Shown here: piece after piece, positions 1 to 6,692 of the stretch
Numbering within the stretch: the first letter of the stretch is position 1
Layout: each line of letters starts with the position of its first letter
IMG/VR virus record: IMGVR_UViG_3300001493_000033
Length of the DNA stretch: 6,692 nt
Strand: one strand, 5' to 3'
From: a virus
Taxonomy: Duplodnaviria; Heunggongvirae; Uroviricota; Caudoviricetes
The notes under the pieces: model-generated
Told to the model about the DNA's origin: nothing
Seen by the model: only the letters and a program-made list of their open reading frames with translations
The model's database searches: none
Translations under genes and position numbers: made by a program

Positions 1-10
1 GTGAATAATG

Positions 11-221
11 GGTGAAGGGTGAACATTCGATTCTTCACCTCCGGCATTCTGCCGGTGTGACTCATACCGGTGATTAATCCNCCGNACTGAAAATCACNCA
101 GGGAGAAAAAAGTTTTTTTTTGATTTGATTGTTCACACTGTTCACCTTTCATTTTTCTCTTTAAATTTCAGTGTGATAACGGGTGAATATACGGTGAAGG
201 GTGAACAGTGGATTGTTCACC
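11..221. repeat. Iteron cluster, crr-like (cis replication region) downstream of alpha
   Basis: Exact TGTTCACC at 139-146 and 214-221 and GGTGAACAG at 200-208; one-mismatch copies at 18-25, 32-39, 130-137, 182-189, 193-200; both orientations. Matches the octamer I recall as the P4 alpha-binding type I iteron. Confidence 0.6.
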
Positions 222-239
222 TTCGGGGAATTCAGGGAT

Positions 240-264
240 AAAAAAAGACCGGCAGATGCCGGTC
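240..264 (-). terminator. Intrinsic terminator of the alpha operon
   Basis: Inverted repeat gaccggca/tgccggtc at 247-264 (7-8 bp stem, GC-rich), followed on the minus strand by a 7-U run (A-run 240-246 on plus); begins 8 nt after the alpha stop codon (272-274). Confidence 0.6.
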
Positions 265-271
265 AGGTGGG

Positions 272-2605
272 TCAGGCTGTCGCAGGGTCGTCACATTTTG
301 GCAGCCAGTCGCCGTAGCTTTCCTCTTTCAGCGTCAGGTTGGTCTGTATCCCCTGTTTGGTATGGCGCTTCTCGTAATTCAGTCCGTATTCCTTCAGCAT
401 CACCGGCAGCCCCAGCCCGAACATTTTCAGACTGAGTACATTCCGGTAGCCGTTTGCCTCCATGTAGGCCAGATAGGCGTGATAGAGGTATTTACAGTAA
501 TTACGCGGGATGATACTGGCGTTCCCCATATACATGCCGCTGGTCTGCGGCAGGGTTTCCAGATAGCCGATAAAATCAAACGTCGGGTCGGCATCCCGTT
601 TGATGTTCAGTGCCTCGTCTGAGTTCTGCTGGGACTGAAGCAGTGACCGGGCGAGCATCGGGTCGCTGAATTTCTGCATCAGGTGACGCACGATGACCGC
701 CAGCTCGCGGGTGATTTTGTCCTTAAGCTGCGGGTCGCGCTCCTGCGGGGCTATCTGTTCCGGGAAGTGAATAATCACCCGCCGGCGTGACACGCCGCCG
801 CTGCGGTCGGTGAAGCGCATCGGGTTATTGTTCACGGCCAGAATNACCGCCGGNATATGCGTGGAGTACGCATCCCGGTATTTCGGGTCCACGGACACCG
901 CATCGCCGCCGGTGATGGCCTTGAGTCCGGCACCGTCGCCGCTCCATTTTTCCTGNTCCGGCAGGCGTATCAGTGAGAAGCCAGTTAACGCGGCACGTTC
1001 ACGCGGGGATTCCAGCGTCTCNATGGTGGCCGACGTGGCGTTATCCTCNCCNGCCAGCAGGGTGGCTATTTCGGCCATGATACTTTTGCCGCTGCCGCCG
1101 GGACCGGTCACCTCCAGAAAGAGCTGCCAGTCGTAGCGGTTTGCCAGCACCATAAACAGTGCNGCCAGAATCACGTCGCGTTTTTCCGCACGNCCACCGG
1201 CGGCACGGTCAAGCCAGCGCCAGAACGCGGGNGCGTGGGTTTCCAGCGTTTCACCNTCCACCGGCGGGGTGAAATCCACATCGCACAGGGTGCGCATCCA
1301 GTGTGACGGACTGTGCGGGTGGAACGTGCCGTTCTGCGTGTCGAGCACGCCGTTACGAAAGCCAATCAGGCGGCGGGAGGGGGCTTCCTGCTGCGGAATA
1401 ATCAGCTTCAGGGTGTCCACCACGGAGGCCACCTTCCCGGAGGAGAACGGCGCGCGCAGACGCTGAAACAGCCCGGCCACATCCCGGGCAAAGTCCTGTG
1501 GTGGCAGCACCTTCCAGACACCATTTTCATAACGGGACAGAAGCTGGCCGTTGGCATCAACCGCGAGCGCCTCGCCGTAATGCTCATAGATACGCATGGC
1601 CTTTTCGCTGGTACTCATGGCGGAAAACTCCGCTTCGCTCATGGTGTCGAACGGGCTTTCAGCCGGTGGCCGGATGGCATCGTAAATGGCCTTACGGGNG
1701 GCCTCCCCGCCGTACTGCGTGAAGGCATCATTCCAGTCACCGAAGACCGGCGGCAGGGCAACAACGCCCTCACACGCATCTGCGGCTGCGGCGGCTTTTT
1801 TCTGGCCGTCACCGCTGAGGTCACGGTCTGCGGCAAGGACAATCTGACAGGCCGGATGCTTCTGCCGGGCAAGGCTGGCCAGAGAAAGGAGGTTCACGGA
1901 AGAAAGCGCCACCATCACCGTTTCACCGGTCAGGTGATGTACGGTAAGTGCGGTCGCGTATCCCTCCGCTATCCACAGACGTTTTCCGGCCTGATTCTGT
2001 CCTTCAAGGNTGTGACAGGTGCCCCTGACCTGNCCGCCTTTCAGGGTGCGCTTACGGCCGTCAGCACTGATTAACTGAAGGTTAACCAGTTCGCCGCTGT
2101 CGTCATACAGTGGCACCACAAGGTCACCGGCGCGCCAGCTCACGCCACCGGCTCTGTGTGTGCCGGTCAGCATCCGGCATTCCCGGCCGGGAAAGCCCTT
2201 GCGGGTCAGGTAGGCGTTACCGGTTCCGGGACGGGTTTTCGCCATCAGGGTTTGTGCCAGTGCGGCGGCGTTCTTCCGGGCAGCGTCTGTTTCAGCACCG
2301 GCGGCNGCCGTCACTGCCGGGTCAGCCGGGGGCAGGCTGCCGGTCACGGCAGCCACCTTTGNGGCCGCGTCGGACGGGGAAACACCAAACACCTTTTCAA
2401 CCAGTTTCAGGCCGTCACCGGCACCACACTGATTGCAGTACCAGGTGCCGCGCCCCTCCCTGTCATCAAAACGGAANCGGTCACTCCCGCCACAGACCGG
2501 ACAGGGCTGATGACGGTTNTTCAGCACCTGAATCCCCAGCGCCGGGAGAATACGCGGCCAGTGGCCGAGCGCATGGCTGACGGTGGCGGTTACGTTNATT
2601 TTCAT
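272..2605 (-). CDS. alpha: P4 alpha-like multifunctional replication protein (zinc-binding primase N-terminus, TOPRIM, SF3/D5-type helicase), 777 aa
   Basis: N-terminal zinc motif CPVCGG...CNQCG; TOPRIM-like LWIAEGYATA...AADRDLSGDG; Walker A GPGGSGKS; RBS AAGGAG 9 nt before ATG at 2605-2603. Several X residues come from ambiguous bases but the frame stays open. Confidence 0.9.
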   Translation of the reverse strand: MKXNVTATVSHALGHWPRILPALGIQVLXNRHQPCPVCGGSDXFRFDDREGRGTWYCNQCGAGDGLKLVEKVFGVSPSDAAXKVAAVTGSLPPADPAVTXAAGAETDAARKNAAALAQTLMAKTRPGTGNAYLTRKGFPGRECRMLTGTHRAGGVSWRAGDLVVPLYDDSGELVNLQLISADGRKRTLKGXQVRGTCHXLEGQNQAGKRLWIAEGYATALTVHHLTGETVMVALSSVNLLSLASLARQKHPACQIVLAADRDLSGDGQKKAAAAADACEGVVALPPVFGDWNDAFTQYGGEAXRKAIYDAIRPPAESPFDTMSEAEFSAMSTSEKAMRIYEHYGEALAVDANGQLLSRYENGVWKVLPPQDFARDVAGLFQRLRAPFSSGKVASVVDTLKLIIPQQEAPSRRLIGFRNGVLDTQNGTFHPHSPSHWMRTLCDVDFTPPVXGETLETHXPAFWRWLDRAAGXRAEKRDVILXALFMVLANRYDWQLFLEVTGPGGSGKSIMAEIATLLXXEDNATSATXETLESPRERAALTGFSLIRLPXQEKWSGDGAGLKAITGGDAVSVDPKYRDAYSTHXPAXILAVNNNPMRFTDRSGGVSRRRVIIHFPEQIAPQERDPQLKDKITRELAVIVRHLMQKFSDPMLARSLLQSQQNSDEALNIKRDADPTFDFIGYLETLPQTSGMYMGNASIIPRNYCKYLYHAYLAYMEANGYRNVLSLKMFGLGLPVMLKEYGLNYEKRHTKQGIQTNLTLKEESYGDWLPKCDDPATA

Positions 2606-2619
2606 GGTGTTGTTCTCCT

Positions 2620-2940
2620 TCAGTGCAGTACCGGCGCTTTTATGTGACGGGCACAGAGTTCATCCNTCACAACCAGCCCGAGAAAGGACAGCGACGGCGC
2701 GGCCTTCAGGGGGCCGGATTCCATTAAATCTTCCAGCAGGGCACAGGCTATCTGACGCCCTTTTTCCTCACCGTGCTGGCGCAGATAAAAGCCTTCCAGC
2801 TCAGCGGCGATGGCCGCCTCCAGTGACTCAAGGGTGAGATGCGGGTAGCGGTGCTGACGTTCGCACACGGTCAGCCAGGCACAGGCGACAGCGCGACGGT
2901 AAAGGGCAGCGCGTAAGACGGGCGGTAAGGGTGTTTTCAT
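2620..2940 (-). CDS. Hypothetical protein, 106 aa, immediately upstream of and coupled to alpha
   Basis: ORF with RBS GGGAGG upstream of ATG at 2940; its TGA stop (2622-2620) overlaps the alpha RBS. No domain recognised by eye. Confidence 0.7.
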
Positions 2941-3075
2941 TTGCTTTCCTCCCTGTGACAGATGACTGCATTCCGTGCCGGTTGCATTAACTGATAAGGC
3001 ATATCTGCGTCTCCTGAAGACGTGCGTATCCCTGCGCGAATACGCACATTTAATTTTTCGGGTGTCGTTTTTTAA

Positions 3076-3704
3076 TTACAGATAATTGCGGTAACTGTTA
3101 TCCGGGGTGGTTTCCGGGTCAGGCTCCGTGCGGGGAATTTCCCGCCATTCCCGCGCTACCGGTGCTGCCCGGCTGACCGGAACAGGGTCCTGCGGGTAAA
3201 TATCCAGATATTTCTCCCGCCATTTCTGTAATTCCGGGTCTCCGGCCATTTCTTTCAGTACCGCATGCCGGTTTACGGAGCTGCGTTTAAACAGGTCAGG
3301 ACGGTCACAGGTAAATTCCCGCAGAAAACGCCCCAGCGGGATGTCTGTGGTGCGCCCGTCGGCGAGGATACGCACAAGGATACTGAATTTACGGCGGTAC
3401 GGATTCCAGACAATGTCCGGGCAGCGGTACGGCATTTCCCANNNNNNNNNNGGCTGCGTTTAAACAGGTCAGGGCGGTCACAGGTAAATTCCCGCAGAAA
3501 ACGCCCCAGCGGGATGTCTGTGGTGCGCCCGTCAGCGAGGATACGCACAAGGATACTGAATTTACGGCGGTACGGATTCCAGACAATGTCCGGGCAGCGG
3601 TACGGCATTTCCCACGGAATACCGTCTTCCAGAATGCCGACCACGGCCACATCGGGAAAACCGGCAGAACGGTAAATCTCACCGGGCTGGGGAAAATCAA
3701 ACAT
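3076..3704 (-). CDS. Hypothetical protein, P4 orf151-like; 151 aa once the gap-flanking duplication is collapsed
   Basis: The 143-aa and 119-aa ORF fragments overlap through a 162-bp duplicated segment either side of the N run; merging at MPYRCPDIVW gives 32 + 119 = 151 aa. RBS GGGAG 9 nt before ATG (3704-3702), which overlaps the upstream gene stop (ATGTTTGA). Confidence 0.65.
3280..3614. repeat. Duplicated 162-bp segment on both sides of a 10-N scaffold gap (3280-3441 and 3453-3614); probable assembly artifact
   Basis: Near-identical sequence (2 mismatches) directly flanking nnnnnnnnnn at 3442-3451; collapsing it restores a single in-frame 151-aa ORF. Confidence 0.6.
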
Positions 3705-3984
3705 GCGTCCTGTCTCCCCGGTCTTTCTGCTGGGCGAGAAAATCGCGGCACAGGCCTTTGGCTTTCAGCTCATTCAGCACAAAATCAATATCTTCATTCA
3801 GGTAACTGAAAATATGCGGAATGTAGAGCTGATGCAGGCCGGAGAGTTCACGGTGAATCAAATCACCCCCAACAAACTGGGATACGGCGCTGGCGCGGTT
3901 GAGCTTATGGTAAGCCTCAATGCTGAGGTGTTCACGGGCGTCATGACGTGCTGAGACGGTCTGAGGGGCTTTTTTATTACGCAC
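3697..3984 (-). CDS. Epsilon-position protein, 95 aa, GTG start
   Basis: Open frame ending in TGA at 3699-3697, overlapping the next start codon; in-frame GTG at 3984-3982 preceded by GGAGGU with 5-nt spacing; overlaps the stop of the upstream small ORF. Assignment is by position and size only. Confidence 0.5.
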
Positions 3985-4174
3985 GGGACACCTCCACCAC
4001 CGGCAGACGGGCAGCAAGGGAGAGCACATAGTCACGGACAAGGGAACGGCGGGCGCTGCGTTCATCACCGGCGACGGTGCGAAGCATGCAGATACGGGGA
4101 TGACGGTCTGCGCGACGGACAGCCGCAAACACAAAGACAAATTCAGGGTGTGAGGGGGTAAGGGTTGTAGCCAT
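3977..4174 (-). CDS. Small protein, 65 aa, Kil-position (possible host cell division inhibitor Icd/Kil-like)
   Basis: ATG at 4174-4172 with RBS GGAGG (4186-4182) 7 nt upstream; product [21 protein letters not shown]...; identical copy at 5969-6166. Function inferred from position in the P4 operon, not from sequence recognition. Confidence 0.55.
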
Positions 4175-4181
4175 GATGGCA

Positions 4182-4296
4182 GCCTCCTTGAAGTAACAGT
4201 TACAGCTACCACTGGAGTTCCTACGCTCATGGGTGGTAGCCCGGACGGGGGTAGGAATACCGGCCTTCAAGGAAACCGGCCAGCCCGAAGGCTGCC
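4182..4296 (-). ncRNA. P4-type immunity leader RNA region (CI-like): seqB-like element plus seqC-like target overlapping the Kil-like RBS
   Basis: Plus-strand cttcaagg (4265-4272) and gtaggaa (4251-4257) are complementary to ccttgaag/gttcctac at 4186-4226 and again at 4408-4433; local hairpin gctaccac/gtggtagc (4205-4212/4233-4240); CAGCC-UUCG-GGCUG tetraloop hairpin (4281-4294). RNA boundaries not determinable from sequence. Confidence 0.5.
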
Positions 4297-4377
4297 CCGC
4301 CCGGACCACCATTATCTGACAGAGGCTACGGTTTAAAAACCACAGCCAGAAAAACAGGTGTGCCGAAGCAACGACGT

Positions 4378-4399
4378 AAAAAAAGACGCATGGCGCGTC
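4378..4399 (-). terminator. Intrinsic terminator between the upstream seqA-like site and the seqB element
   Basis: Minus-strand GACGCGCCAUGCGUC (6-bp stem incl. one GU, 3-nt loop) followed by U7 (A-run 4378-4384 on plus); conserved in the second copy at 6406-6427. Confidence 0.55.
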
Positions 4400-4407
4400 A
4401 TATGTCG

Positions 4408-4433
4408 CCTTGAAGTAACTCGGGTTCCTACGC
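4408..4433 (-). promoter_or_regulatory. seqA-like upstream target site (direct repeat of the seqC-like site)
   Basis: ccttgaagtaac (4408-4419) and gttcctacgc (4424-4433) repeat the motifs at 4186-4197 and 4217-4226; both are complementary to the seqB element. Confidence 0.5.
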
Positions 4434-4462
4434 CCGGCTGCCGATTTTGCGGCAGCGGAGAA

Positions 4463-4492
4463 ACTATATCCGCAAATGCCGGAAAAAGGCAA
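4463..4492 (-). promoter_or_regulatory. Candidate sigma-70 promoter (PLE-like) reading toward the immunity region
   Basis: On the minus strand, -35 TTGCCT (4492-4487), 18-bp spacer, -10 TATAGT (4468-4463); conserved in copy 2 (-35 at 6515-6520, -10 at 6491-6496). Prediction by eye only. Confidence 0.35.
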
Positions 4493-4527
4493 GCCAGAAA
4501 AAGGGACTTTTTGCAGAGCGGGCATCA

Positions 4528-4794
4528 TCATGCGTCGTACCCCCGTTTGCGTCCGGCAATGCGCCCGGCCATCCATGCGGTGATTTCAGAGTGCAGCCAG
4601 GCCACATTTTTACCGCCAAGACTCACCTGCGGCGGAAATTCCCCCTTACGGATGAGTTCATAGATGGTCGAGCGTGACAGGCCGCACAGGTGCATCACTT
4701 CCGGCAGACGTAAAAAACGCTCCTGCGTGATGTCCGGCAGCGGCATCAGTGGCGTCACAGGGGCGGGAGACGGGGAAGAAAAAACAGCTTGCAT
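4528..4794 (-). CDS. alpA: AlpA/Vis-family phage transcriptional regulator (excision/integrase regulator), 88 aa
   Basis: Product contains the AlpA-type helix-turn-helix region [27 protein letters not shown]; RBS GAGGU 6 nt before ATG (4794-4792); same size as P4 orf88/Vis. Confidence 0.88.
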
Positions 4795-4896
4795 CGGGCT
4801 ACCTCGTTAATGTCCATACAGCACCGGATAAGTCCGTCCGGCTTCGGGTAGCGCTTTATTTTGTGAATATTTTTGGCAGACGCAACAGGGGGGATT

Positions 4897-4914
4897 TGTT
4901 CCGGNAGCCTTACA
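4897..4914. promoter_or_regulatory. TGT-N12-ACA dyad, candidate Ogr/Delta-type activator site for the leftward late promoter (PLL-like)
   Basis: TGT (4897-4899), 12 nt, ACA (4912-4914); centre about 55 bp from a plausible leftward start near 4850, upstream of the regulator ATG at 4794. Confidence 0.4.
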
Positions 4915-4940
4915 ATGACTGTGTGTTTTTTGTTCATTCC

Positions 4941-4970
4941 CACTTAAAGTCATTTAAAGCCACTTAAAGC
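4941..4970. repeat. Three tandem 10-bp direct repeats (cacttaaagt / catttaaagc / cacttaaagc)
   Basis: Perfectly phased decamers at 4941-4950, 4951-4960, 4961-4970, between the leftward dyad and the ori-like iterons. Function unknown. Confidence 0.5.
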
Positions 4971-5073
4971 AATTCGTAATTTTTATAGTGAAATACAAAT
5001 CGTTTCTTCTTATTCATTCACAGCGAATTAATAAAAACAAACAGTAGTAAACAGCACAAAAAGTCCATGAGCG

Positions 5074-5178
5074 GGTGAACAGTGGTGAACAGACGGTGAA
5101 CAGTCATTACTGCGATTGTTCACCCNTTAACTTACTGTATTACTTATCTTTTTTCTTATGGTGAACAGAGGTGAACAG
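5074..5178. repeat. Iteron cluster, ori-like
   Basis: GGTGAACAG at 5074-5082, 5084-5092, 5095-5103 (about 10.5-bp phasing), 5160-5168, 5170-5178, and inverted TGTTCACC at 5117-5124; flanked by AT-rich sequence (4970-5070, 5180-5200). Confidence 0.6.
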
Positions 5179-5256
5179 TAAAATATAAAAAAACAAACAG
5201 TAAGCCGGTTTTTCCTGCGACCTTTTCCTGGCTTGCCGGTCTGAGGATGAGTCTCC

Positions 5257-5274
5257 TGTGTCAGGACTGGCACA
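5257..5274. promoter_or_regulatory. TGT-N12-ACA dyad, candidate Ogr/Delta-type activator site for the rightward late promoter (Psid-like)
   Basis: TGT (5257-5259), 12 nt, ACA (5272-5274); centre about 55 bp upstream of a predicted start near 5320, with the ATG at 5347. Confidence 0.45.
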
Positions 5275-5346
5275 TCTGCAATGCGTCGTGTTGTTGTCCG
5301 GTGTACGTCACAATTTTCTTAACCTGAAGTGACGAGGAGCCGGAAA

Positions 5347-5931
5347 ATGTCTGACAACACCATCCCTGAATATCTGCAACCCGCACTGGCACAACTGGAA
5401 AAGGCCAGAGCCGCTCATCTTGAGAACGCCCGACTGATGGATGAGACCGTCAAGGCCATTGAACGGGCAGAGCAGGAAAAAAATGCGCTGGCGCAGGCCG
5501 ACGGAAATGACGCTGATGACTGGCGCACAGCCTTTCGTGCAGCCGGTGGTGTCCTGAGCGACGAGCTGAAACAGCGCCACATTGAGCGCGTGGCACGCCG
5601 GGAGCTGGTACAGGAATATGNCAATCTGGCCGTGGTGCTGANTTTTGAACGTGAACGCCTGAAAGGGGCGTGTGACAGCACGGCCACCGCCTACCGGAAG
5701 GCACATCATCACCTTCTGAGTCTGTATGCAGAGCATGAGCTGGAACACGCCCTGAATGAAACCTGTGAGGCGCTTGTCCGGGCAATGCATCTGAGTATCC
5801 TGGTACAGGAAAATCCGCTCGCCAACACCACCGGCCATCAGGGCTACGTCGCACCCGATAAAGCTGTCATGCAGCAGGTGAAATCATCGCTGGAACAGAA
5901 AATTAAACAGATGCAAATCAGCCTCACCGGC
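5347..5931 (+). CDS. Sid/Psu-family late-operon protein, 3-prime end lost in the scaffold gap (at least 195 aa)
   Basis: ATG at 5347 with RBS GAGGAG 6 nt upstream (ORF track begins at an upstream in-frame GTG, 5329); charged, coiled-coil-like product; first gene downstream of the divergent dyad promoter. Position and length fit Sid better than Psu, but this is not resolved. Confidence 0.55.
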
Positions 5932-5968
5932 NNNNNNNNNNGCTGAGACGGTCTGAGGGGCTTTTTTA

Positions 5969-6166
5969 TTACGCACGGGACACCTCCACCACCGGCAGAC
6001 GGGCAGCAAGGGAGAGCACATAGTCTCGGACAAGGGAACGGCGGGCGCTGCGTTCATCACCGGCGACGGTGCGAAGCATGCAGATACGGGGATGACGGTC
6101 TGCGCGACGGACAGCCGCAAACACAAAGACAAATTCAGGGTGTGAGGGGGTAAGGGTTGTAGCCAT
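5969..6166 (-). CDS. Second copy of the Kil-position small protein (65 aa)
   Basis: Same ATG and RBS context as 3977-4174; the coding region lies entirely within the near-identical duplicated segment. Confidence 0.5.
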
Positions 6167-6173
6167 GATGGCA

Positions 6174-6461
6174 GCCTCCGTTAGATAGCAGGTTACGCTA
6201 TCGCCGGAGTTCTCACGCTCGATGGCGATAGCCCAGACGGGGGTGAGAATACCGGCTCTAACGGATACCGGCCAGCCCGGAGGCTGCCCCGCCTGAGCTA
6301 CCATTGACTCAGTGGCATAACATGCGATTGCAAACAGGATCATACCTGCACGGCAAACCACACGCCACACCATAATCTGGCGCTCTGTGGCGTTGATTGC
6401 GACACAAAAAAAGACGCATGGCGCGTCATATGTCGCCGTTAGATTGCTCGGGTTCTCACGC
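6174..6461 (-). ncRNA. Variant P4-type immunity region (seqA-, seqB-, seqC-like sites with altered but mutually complementary sequences)
   Basis: seqC-like ccgttagatagc (6178-6189) and gttctcacgc (6209-6218); seqB-like gtgagaa (6243-6249) and tctaacgg (6257-6264); seqA-like 6436-6461; hairpin gctatcgcc/ggcgatagc (6197-6205/6224-6232); UCCG-loop hairpin 6273-6286; terminator 6406-6427. Confidence 0.5.
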
Positions 6462-6555
6462 CCGGCTGCCGATTTTGCGGCAGCGGAAAAACTATATCCG
6501 CAAATGCCGGAAAAAGGCAAGCCAGAAAAAGGGAGTTTTTGCAGAACAGGCATCA

Positions 6556-6692
6556 TCATGCGTCGTACCCCCGTTTGCGTCCGGCGATGCGCCCGGCCAT
6601 CCATGCAGTGACTTCAGAGTGCAGCCAGGCCACATTTTTACCGCCAAGACTCACCTGCGGCGGAAATTCCCCCTTACGGATGAGTTCATAGA
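6556..6692 (-). CDS. alpA: AlpA/Vis-family regulator, second copy, C-terminal part only (5-prime end beyond window)
   Basis: Near-identical to 4528-4664; stop codon at 6558-6556. Confidence 0.75.

Follow-up and report, generated by a model that had tools for sequence, protein, structure and literature searches.

Iteron origins of theta plasmids (such as pSC101, F, P1, and R6K) carry short direct repeats and an adjacent AT-rich unwinding tract, and are served by an initiator encoded by the element itself. In the satellite phage P4, the minimal origin, ori1, reportedly spans about 123 bp, made up of six iterons and an AT-rich region of 35 bp, and the deletion of an iteron, or the insertion of 6 or 10 bp, is said to inactivate it. 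The replication of P4 reportedly requires neither DnaA nor DnaG. Its alpha protein is said to bind the type I iterons at both ori and a second site, crr, with ori-bound alpha being bridged to crr by DNA looping. An alternative internal origin, ori2, has been mapped within alpha and is reportedly devoid of iterons. The crr is described in the literature as essential for replication, and it is annotated in the P4 record (X51522, 4291–4590) as a “cis required region for replication” consisting of two direct repeats of 120 bp. Regarding the initiator, PMC2777425 presents P4 alpha as a bacterial-type primase with an SF3 helicase and a C-terminal winged-helix domain, and PMC4234260 states, with reference to Ziegelin & Lanka 1995 and Yeo et al. 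2002, that it binds the P4 origin repeats through the winged-helix domain and then unwinds and primes.

The whole stretch of DNA analysed here (6692 nucleotides, hereafter the window) showed 96.9% identity to positions 4367–10167 of P4 (X51522/NC_001609) in a megablast search against phage records. Positions 4800–5350 of the query fell under the P4 features “origin of DNA replication”, “ori type 1 repeat” (six copies), and “ori type 2 repeat” (three copies), with the six type 1 repeats (X51522 9310–9413) annotated inside rep_origin <9086..9809. A motif scan found six exact copies of the octamer TGTTCACC at 5074–5178, in the order three direct, one inverted, and two direct (Table 1). The gap-free alignment revealed the same six octamers as in P4, in the same orientation and with the same spacing, the only differences within the array being two substitutions and one N, all of them in the 35 bp AT-rich spacer. 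A preliminary description of this DNA, made by reading its raw sequence alone, had proposed six octamer copies forming a P4-type iteron array, a proposal that a different consensus of the P4 ori and crr iterons would have overturned; the octamers coincide exactly, base for base, with the annotated type 1 repeats of P4, and the consensus is identical. We hold with great confidence that the region 5074–5178 is the core of a P4-type replication origin (ori, ori1) in a P4-like satellite prophage. The six-octamer cluster is thus the well-characterised replication origin of phage P4, which is already known. For this window, its recognition is of value only as annotation, since it identifies the element as a P4-like satellite and locates the origin, crr, and the gene of the initiator.

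Table 1. Coordinates of the origin, its partner site, and the surrounding features in the window.
Feature	Position in window	Strand	Evidence or remark
Whole window	1–6692		GC 0.56
crr (cis replication region), 5′ end cut by the window edge	1..226		Aligned to P4 4367–4590; crr annotated in X51522 and X05623
alpha gene, 777-aa primase/SF3 helicase/origin-binding protein	272..2605	-	97% identical to P4 alpha
alpha residues 671–770, winged-helix origin-binding domain	296..595	-	phmmer E = 1e-62 to PDB 1KA8, full length
orf88/vis (AlpA family), left neighbour of ori	4528..4794	-	Pfam Phage_AlpA 3.9e-21; ORF88 in P4
Equivalent of P4 rep_origin <9086..9809	4850..5573		Gap-free alignment for 4850–5350, offset 4236; the 5573 end assumes the same offset
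TGT-N12-ACA dyad between vis and the array, putative site of the Delta/Ogr activator at late promoter P_LL	4897..4914		Pattern match
Three tandem 10 bp “ori type 2 repeats” (YCAYTTAAAG)	4940..4969	+	P4 9176–9205, identical here; AT-rich left flank
Left flank of array	4975–5060		GC 0.27
Type I iteron 1, TGTTCACC	5074..5081	-	Exact match; P4 9310–9317, “ori type 1 repeat”
Type I iteron 2	5084..5091	-	Exact match; aligned to P4 9320–9327
Type I iteron 3	5095..5102	-	Exact match; aligned to P4 9331–9338
Type I iteron 4, sole inverted copy	5117..5124	+	Exact match; aligned to P4 9353–9360
AT-rich spacer between iterons 4 and 5	5125..5159		35 bp; GC 0.21
Type I iteron 5	5160..5167	-	Exact match; aligned to P4 9396–9403
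Type I iteron 6	5170..5177	-	Exact match; aligned to P4 9406–9413
Right flank of array	5179–5205		GC 0.19
TGT-N12-ACA dyad, sid side of ori, putative P_sid activator site	5257..5274		Pattern match
sid, right neighbour of ori, shortened by the N run 5932–5941	5347..5931	+	P4 sid CDS begins at 9583; phrog_6165 4.9e-92
Immunity pairing boxes, copy 1			CTTGAAG/CTTCAAG/CTTGAAG
Immunity pairing boxes, copy 2			CGTTAGA/TCTAACG/CGTTAGA
Immunity pairing boxes, P4			CTGTGAA/TTCACAG/CTGTGAA

Across the window, the scan detected 10 exact copies of TGTTCACC against 0.24 expected from dinucleotide-preserving shuffling (about 40-fold enrichment), a number that none of the 200 shuffles reached. The exact copies were limited to two clusters, six of them in the array and the other four at the start of the window. 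The 9-mer GGTGAACAG fits five of the six copies of the array, the inverted one being GGTGAACAA. When one mismatch was allowed, three further copies appeared in the start cluster. Only four others arose elsewhere, two within alpha (829 and 1414), one at its start (2611), and one in the epsilon region (3929); these are scattered and at chance level.

The centre-to-centre gaps of the six iterons are 10, 11, 22, 43, and 10 bp, close to the helical repeat or its multiples. The preliminary description had placed three copies about 10.5 bp apart on the same face of the helix; their spacing of 10 and 11 bp agrees with this, but the phasing covers all six sites. Their centres gave a circular resultant of 0.86 at a period of 10.5 bp, a value reached by 1.4% of 20,000 random placements of six sites, and of 0.98 at 10.75 bp, a period picked post hoc, reached by 0.01% of 20,000. 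AT-rich DNA beside the array had also been pointed out, and both flanks are indeed poor in GC; however, the clearest tract is internal to the array, separating iteron 4 from iteron 5, and it matches in length the AT-rich segment of the minimal origin. Its length and sequence are nearly invariant across eight P4-like elements, and it is likely the site of duplex opening. A single N base is present within the array, at 5126, just after iteron 4. No match to the DnaA box TTWTNCACA was detected on either strand of the window. The sequence agrees with the properties reported for P4 ori1, with a spacer of precisely 35 bp, phased sites, and a lack of DnaA boxes.

The cluster at the start of the window includes exact copies of TGTTCACC at 18 (-), 139 (+), 200 (-), and 214 (+), and degenerate ones at 32, 130, and 182. 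This region holds the end of the first 120 bp repeat of crr and the whole second repeat, and the crr-like array that had been suggested there aligns to the annotated crr of P4; a second cis site with the same iterons is present downstream of alpha. The preliminary description had estimated about 4.9 kb between both arrays, comparable to the separation of about 4.5 kb that it gave for P4. The gap measures 4852 bp in the window (bases 222–5073) against 4724 bp in P4 (bases 4586–9309), which upholds the comparison; nevertheless, the figure is inflated, and the true gap is about 4.68 kb instead of 4.85 kb, because 173 bp (3442–3614) correspond to an assembly duplication. A reading of raw sequence had, in this case, correctly recovered a real bipartite origin.

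That duplication is one of several defects in the window, a composite scaffold of low quality in which 26 isolated Ns and two runs of N occur. Between 3280 and 3614, a 10-base N run (3442–3451) is flanked by a 162-nt direct duplicate of 99% identity, and both together split ORF151 into two ORFs. Since the deletion of 3442–3614 restores an intact ORF151 of 151 amino acids matching that of P4, this segment is a scaffolding artefact in which an overlap was left unmerged. The second N run (5932–5941) shortens sid, and beyond it the epsilon-end/cI/vis region appears again (5942–6692 versus 3950–4700), in a copy 93–94% identical to the first one. Both copies match prophages at 100% identity, each in different E. 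coli genomes. As this second, divergent copy follows the N run, the window is a chimeric join of two different types of P4-like prophages. The immunity region (4186–4425 and 6177–6450; about 8420–8700 in P4 X51522) presented three specificity types among both copies and P4, with matched changes in all three pairing boxes. The Rfam families C4 antisense RNA (RF01695), isrK, and c4-a1b1 matched both immunity copies. This three-way compensatory variation is consistent with heteroimmune P4-like prophages.

The alpha gene, encoded between ori and crr, is a full-length open frame whose product shares 754 of 777 residues with P4 alpha, and 17 of the 23 mismatches are X residues derived from N bases. 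Its Pfam matches were Zn_Ribbon_Prim, Toprim_3, D5_N, DUF5906, and Pox_D5, and its C-terminal region matched PDB 1KA8, the solved origin-binding domain of P4. The element carries, therefore, its own cognate alpha with Toprim, SF3 helicase, and C-terminal winged-helix domains. Residue 704, inside the 1KA8-type domain, is Cys (codon TGT, 494–496), whereas it is Arg in P4, in five close relatives, and in 37 distant ones, with a CGT codon in the six close sequences checked. This R704C change may be real, in which case it could weaken origin binding, or may be a base-call error amid the many N bases.

These observations bear on the possibility that the origin is a genuine P4-type ori but inactive here, either because the copy survives as a relic in a prophage that is defective or mis-assembled, or because an R704C alpha would be unable to bind it. 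The replacement of an otherwise invariant Arg and the chimeric nature of the scaffold, with its disrupted ORF151 and truncated sid, would fit such a loss of function. However, the disruption of ORF151 vanishes once the duplicated 173 bp are removed, which makes it an assembly artefact, and the six iterons, their spacing, and crr are intact, as is the reading frame of alpha. Moreover, R704C results from a single C-to-T change, which may be erroneous given how many bases of the sequence are ambiguous. We consider an inactive origin improbable.

Of 5426 complete E. coli genomes, 1006 carry the ori region, in every case on the chromosome; none of the RefSeq matches listed for E. coli had an annotation over it. 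When eight P4-like elements were aligned, neither the iteron block nor the spacers between iterons varied; the stretch of the type 2 repeats, 100–140 bp to the left of the iteron block, was heavily diverged. At positions 4932–4985, the window carries type 2 repeats identical to those of P4, and other E. coli P4-like elements carry unrelated sequences there, some of them with a CCAGA...TCTGG dyad. Given this strong divergence, the type 2 repeats do not belong to the conserved core of the origin, and they look like an element-specific regulatory site near P_LL.

A wider scan with alpha as the query, using one genome per species, yielded 80 loci (alpha identity 56–98%) in Enterobacter, Citrobacter, Klebsiella, Raoultella, Pantoea, Pectobacterium, Serratia, Rahnella, and other genera. 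Four of the hits with 96–98% identity (L009, L010, L011, and L045) were short contigs filed under MAGs of Ferruginibacter, Clostridiales, and Ruminococcus, where DNA of Enterobacterales has almost certainly been mis-binned. The relaxed core NNTTCACN was searched for in the 61 of the 80 loci with enough upstream sequence (alpha identity 56–83%). The densest cluster upstream of alpha was almost always arranged as “++-+++”, with offsets of 0/10/53/74–75/85–86/95–96, which is the layout of the window array read from the other strand. All six sites were present in 36 of the 61 loci, and most of the remaining ones kept five at the same offsets; the inverted orientation of iteron 4 is conserved across the family. 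This six-site geometry was maintained down to 56% alpha identity (loci L012–L088, about 1.6–2.6 kb upstream of alpha). A Serratia element with an alpha of 58% identity has the array between an AlpA-like gene and a sid-like gene, as in the window, and the sid-like gene is followed by an Ogr/Delta gene. The octamer itself drifts among elements, with the forms TGTTCACC, TGTTCACT, TCTTCACC, and TATTCACC. The geometry of the iterons is, consequently, far more conserved than their sequence or the flanking type 2 repeats, in agreement with the reported loss of replication on insertions within P4 ori. Such a rigid geometry would ease the automatic detection of origins in P4-like prophages, in which they are usually unannotated.

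The drift of the octamer affects ori and crr together. The eighth base of the iteron, C or T, was compared between the ori and the crr of the same element, giving 22 C/C pairs, 9 T/T pairs, and a single discordant one (Fisher p = 4e-7, Spearman 0.80, statistics that ignore shared ancestry). This co-variation is what a single protein reading both sites would predict, and we take it as supporting, not decisive. The 420 bp downstream of alpha showed no crr-like cluster in many of the distant relatives. A search for a determinant in the C-terminal region of alpha that would separate C- from T-type iterons returned one column above the 80% threshold, K versus T in “SLKMFG”/“SLTMFG”; as this column has exceptions and follows the phylogeny, no specificity determinant can be claimed. 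It is conceivable, although we think it rather unlikely, that alpha–iteron pairs define replication-specificity groups, with several P4-like prophages co-residing in one genome without cross-initiation. No description of such groups was found in the literature searched, and the idea may be known already or trivial.

The array lies between orf88/vis and sid, as in P4. Both the RefSeq P4 record NC_001609 and PHROG 6165 give sid the label “polarity suppression Psu-like”; the name has been carried over from psu and could mislead automated annotation. On either side of the array, TGT-N12-ACA dyads (at 4897 and 5257) were detected, which are putative activator sites of P_LL and P_sid in view of the P2/P4 late-promoter consensus. 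In this vis–sid intergenic setting, and with a gene for an AlpA-family DNA-binding protein adjoining the array, the octamers could be operators for a regulator of the divergent late promoters (P_LL towards vis and P_sid towards sid) instead of replication iterons. Against this, both dyads fall outside the array, the P4 record annotates the octamers as origin repeats, alpha has a dedicated origin-binding domain, and the iteron variants of ori and crr change together. Above all, the same octamer is found at crr, downstream of the alpha terminator and without promoter context; because the same sites recur there, we reject a role as operators only, which is very improbable, although the octamers may have a dual role in promoter occlusion. 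That the repeats arose by chance or reflect low complexity in AT-rich intergenic DNA, for which only the AT-rich setting speaks, can be dismissed, given the excess of exact copies over the shuffles, the conservation of the layout across genera, and the invariance of the iteron block in the eight P4-like elements.

With the octamers read as replication iterons, the initiation of replication in this element would proceed as follows. The near-integral helical turns between the six iteron centres would place the binding sites on one face of the DNA, and the alpha protein of the element would recognise them through its C-terminal winged-helix domain. The crr iterons just downstream of the alpha gene would act as the second, cis-required half of a bipartite origin. 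Alpha at ori would open the duplex, most plausibly in the 35 bp AT-rich spacer between iterons 4 and 5, unwind it with its SF3 helicase domain, and prime with its N-terminal Toprim primase, after which the host DNA polymerase III would carry out the extension without DnaA. Alpha binding to the iterons and alpha-dependent replication from the region find support in secondary literature (PMC4234260), in the annotation given by the depositors of the P4 record, and in the co-variation of ori and crr. Within this scheme, the binding of alpha to the window copy, the site of melting, the looping between ori and crr, and the list of host factors are inferred.

Regarding other known systems, the locus resembles the origins of theta plasmids in its short direct repeats beside an AT-rich tract and in its element-encoded initiator. 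It differs from them in that its iterons are of 8 bp (8–9 bp if the 9-mer is considered) instead of about 17–22 bp, in that there is no DnaA box, in that the initiator is a primase–helicase fusion, itself helicase and primase, and not a Rep protein without these activities, and in that the origin is bipartite, with a distant cis site. The origins of Gram-negative PICIs (PMC6092414) belong to another satellite family, with pri-rep as the initiator and other iteron sequences. ORF904 of pRN1 (PMC2777425, PMC4234260) also combines primase, SF3 helicase, and a C-terminal winged-helix domain in one polypeptide; its primase, however, is of the prim/pol type, not Toprim, and the pRN1 origin is a stem-loop without iterons (PMC4234260). 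Closer to the array is the crr of P4, which has the same octamer, lies beyond the alpha terminator, and serves as the partner of ori, but consists of two 120 bp direct repeats with exact and degenerate iterons in both orientations, and not of a phased 3 + 1 + 2 array. Finally, the ori (ori1) of P4 shares with the window the same six TGTTCACC iterons in the same order, orientation, and spacing, the same three type 2 repeats, and the same flanking genes, vis and sid; the window copy differs from it at a few single positions of the flanks (overall identity about 97%) and in belonging to a prophage in a draft scaffold instead of the reference phage.
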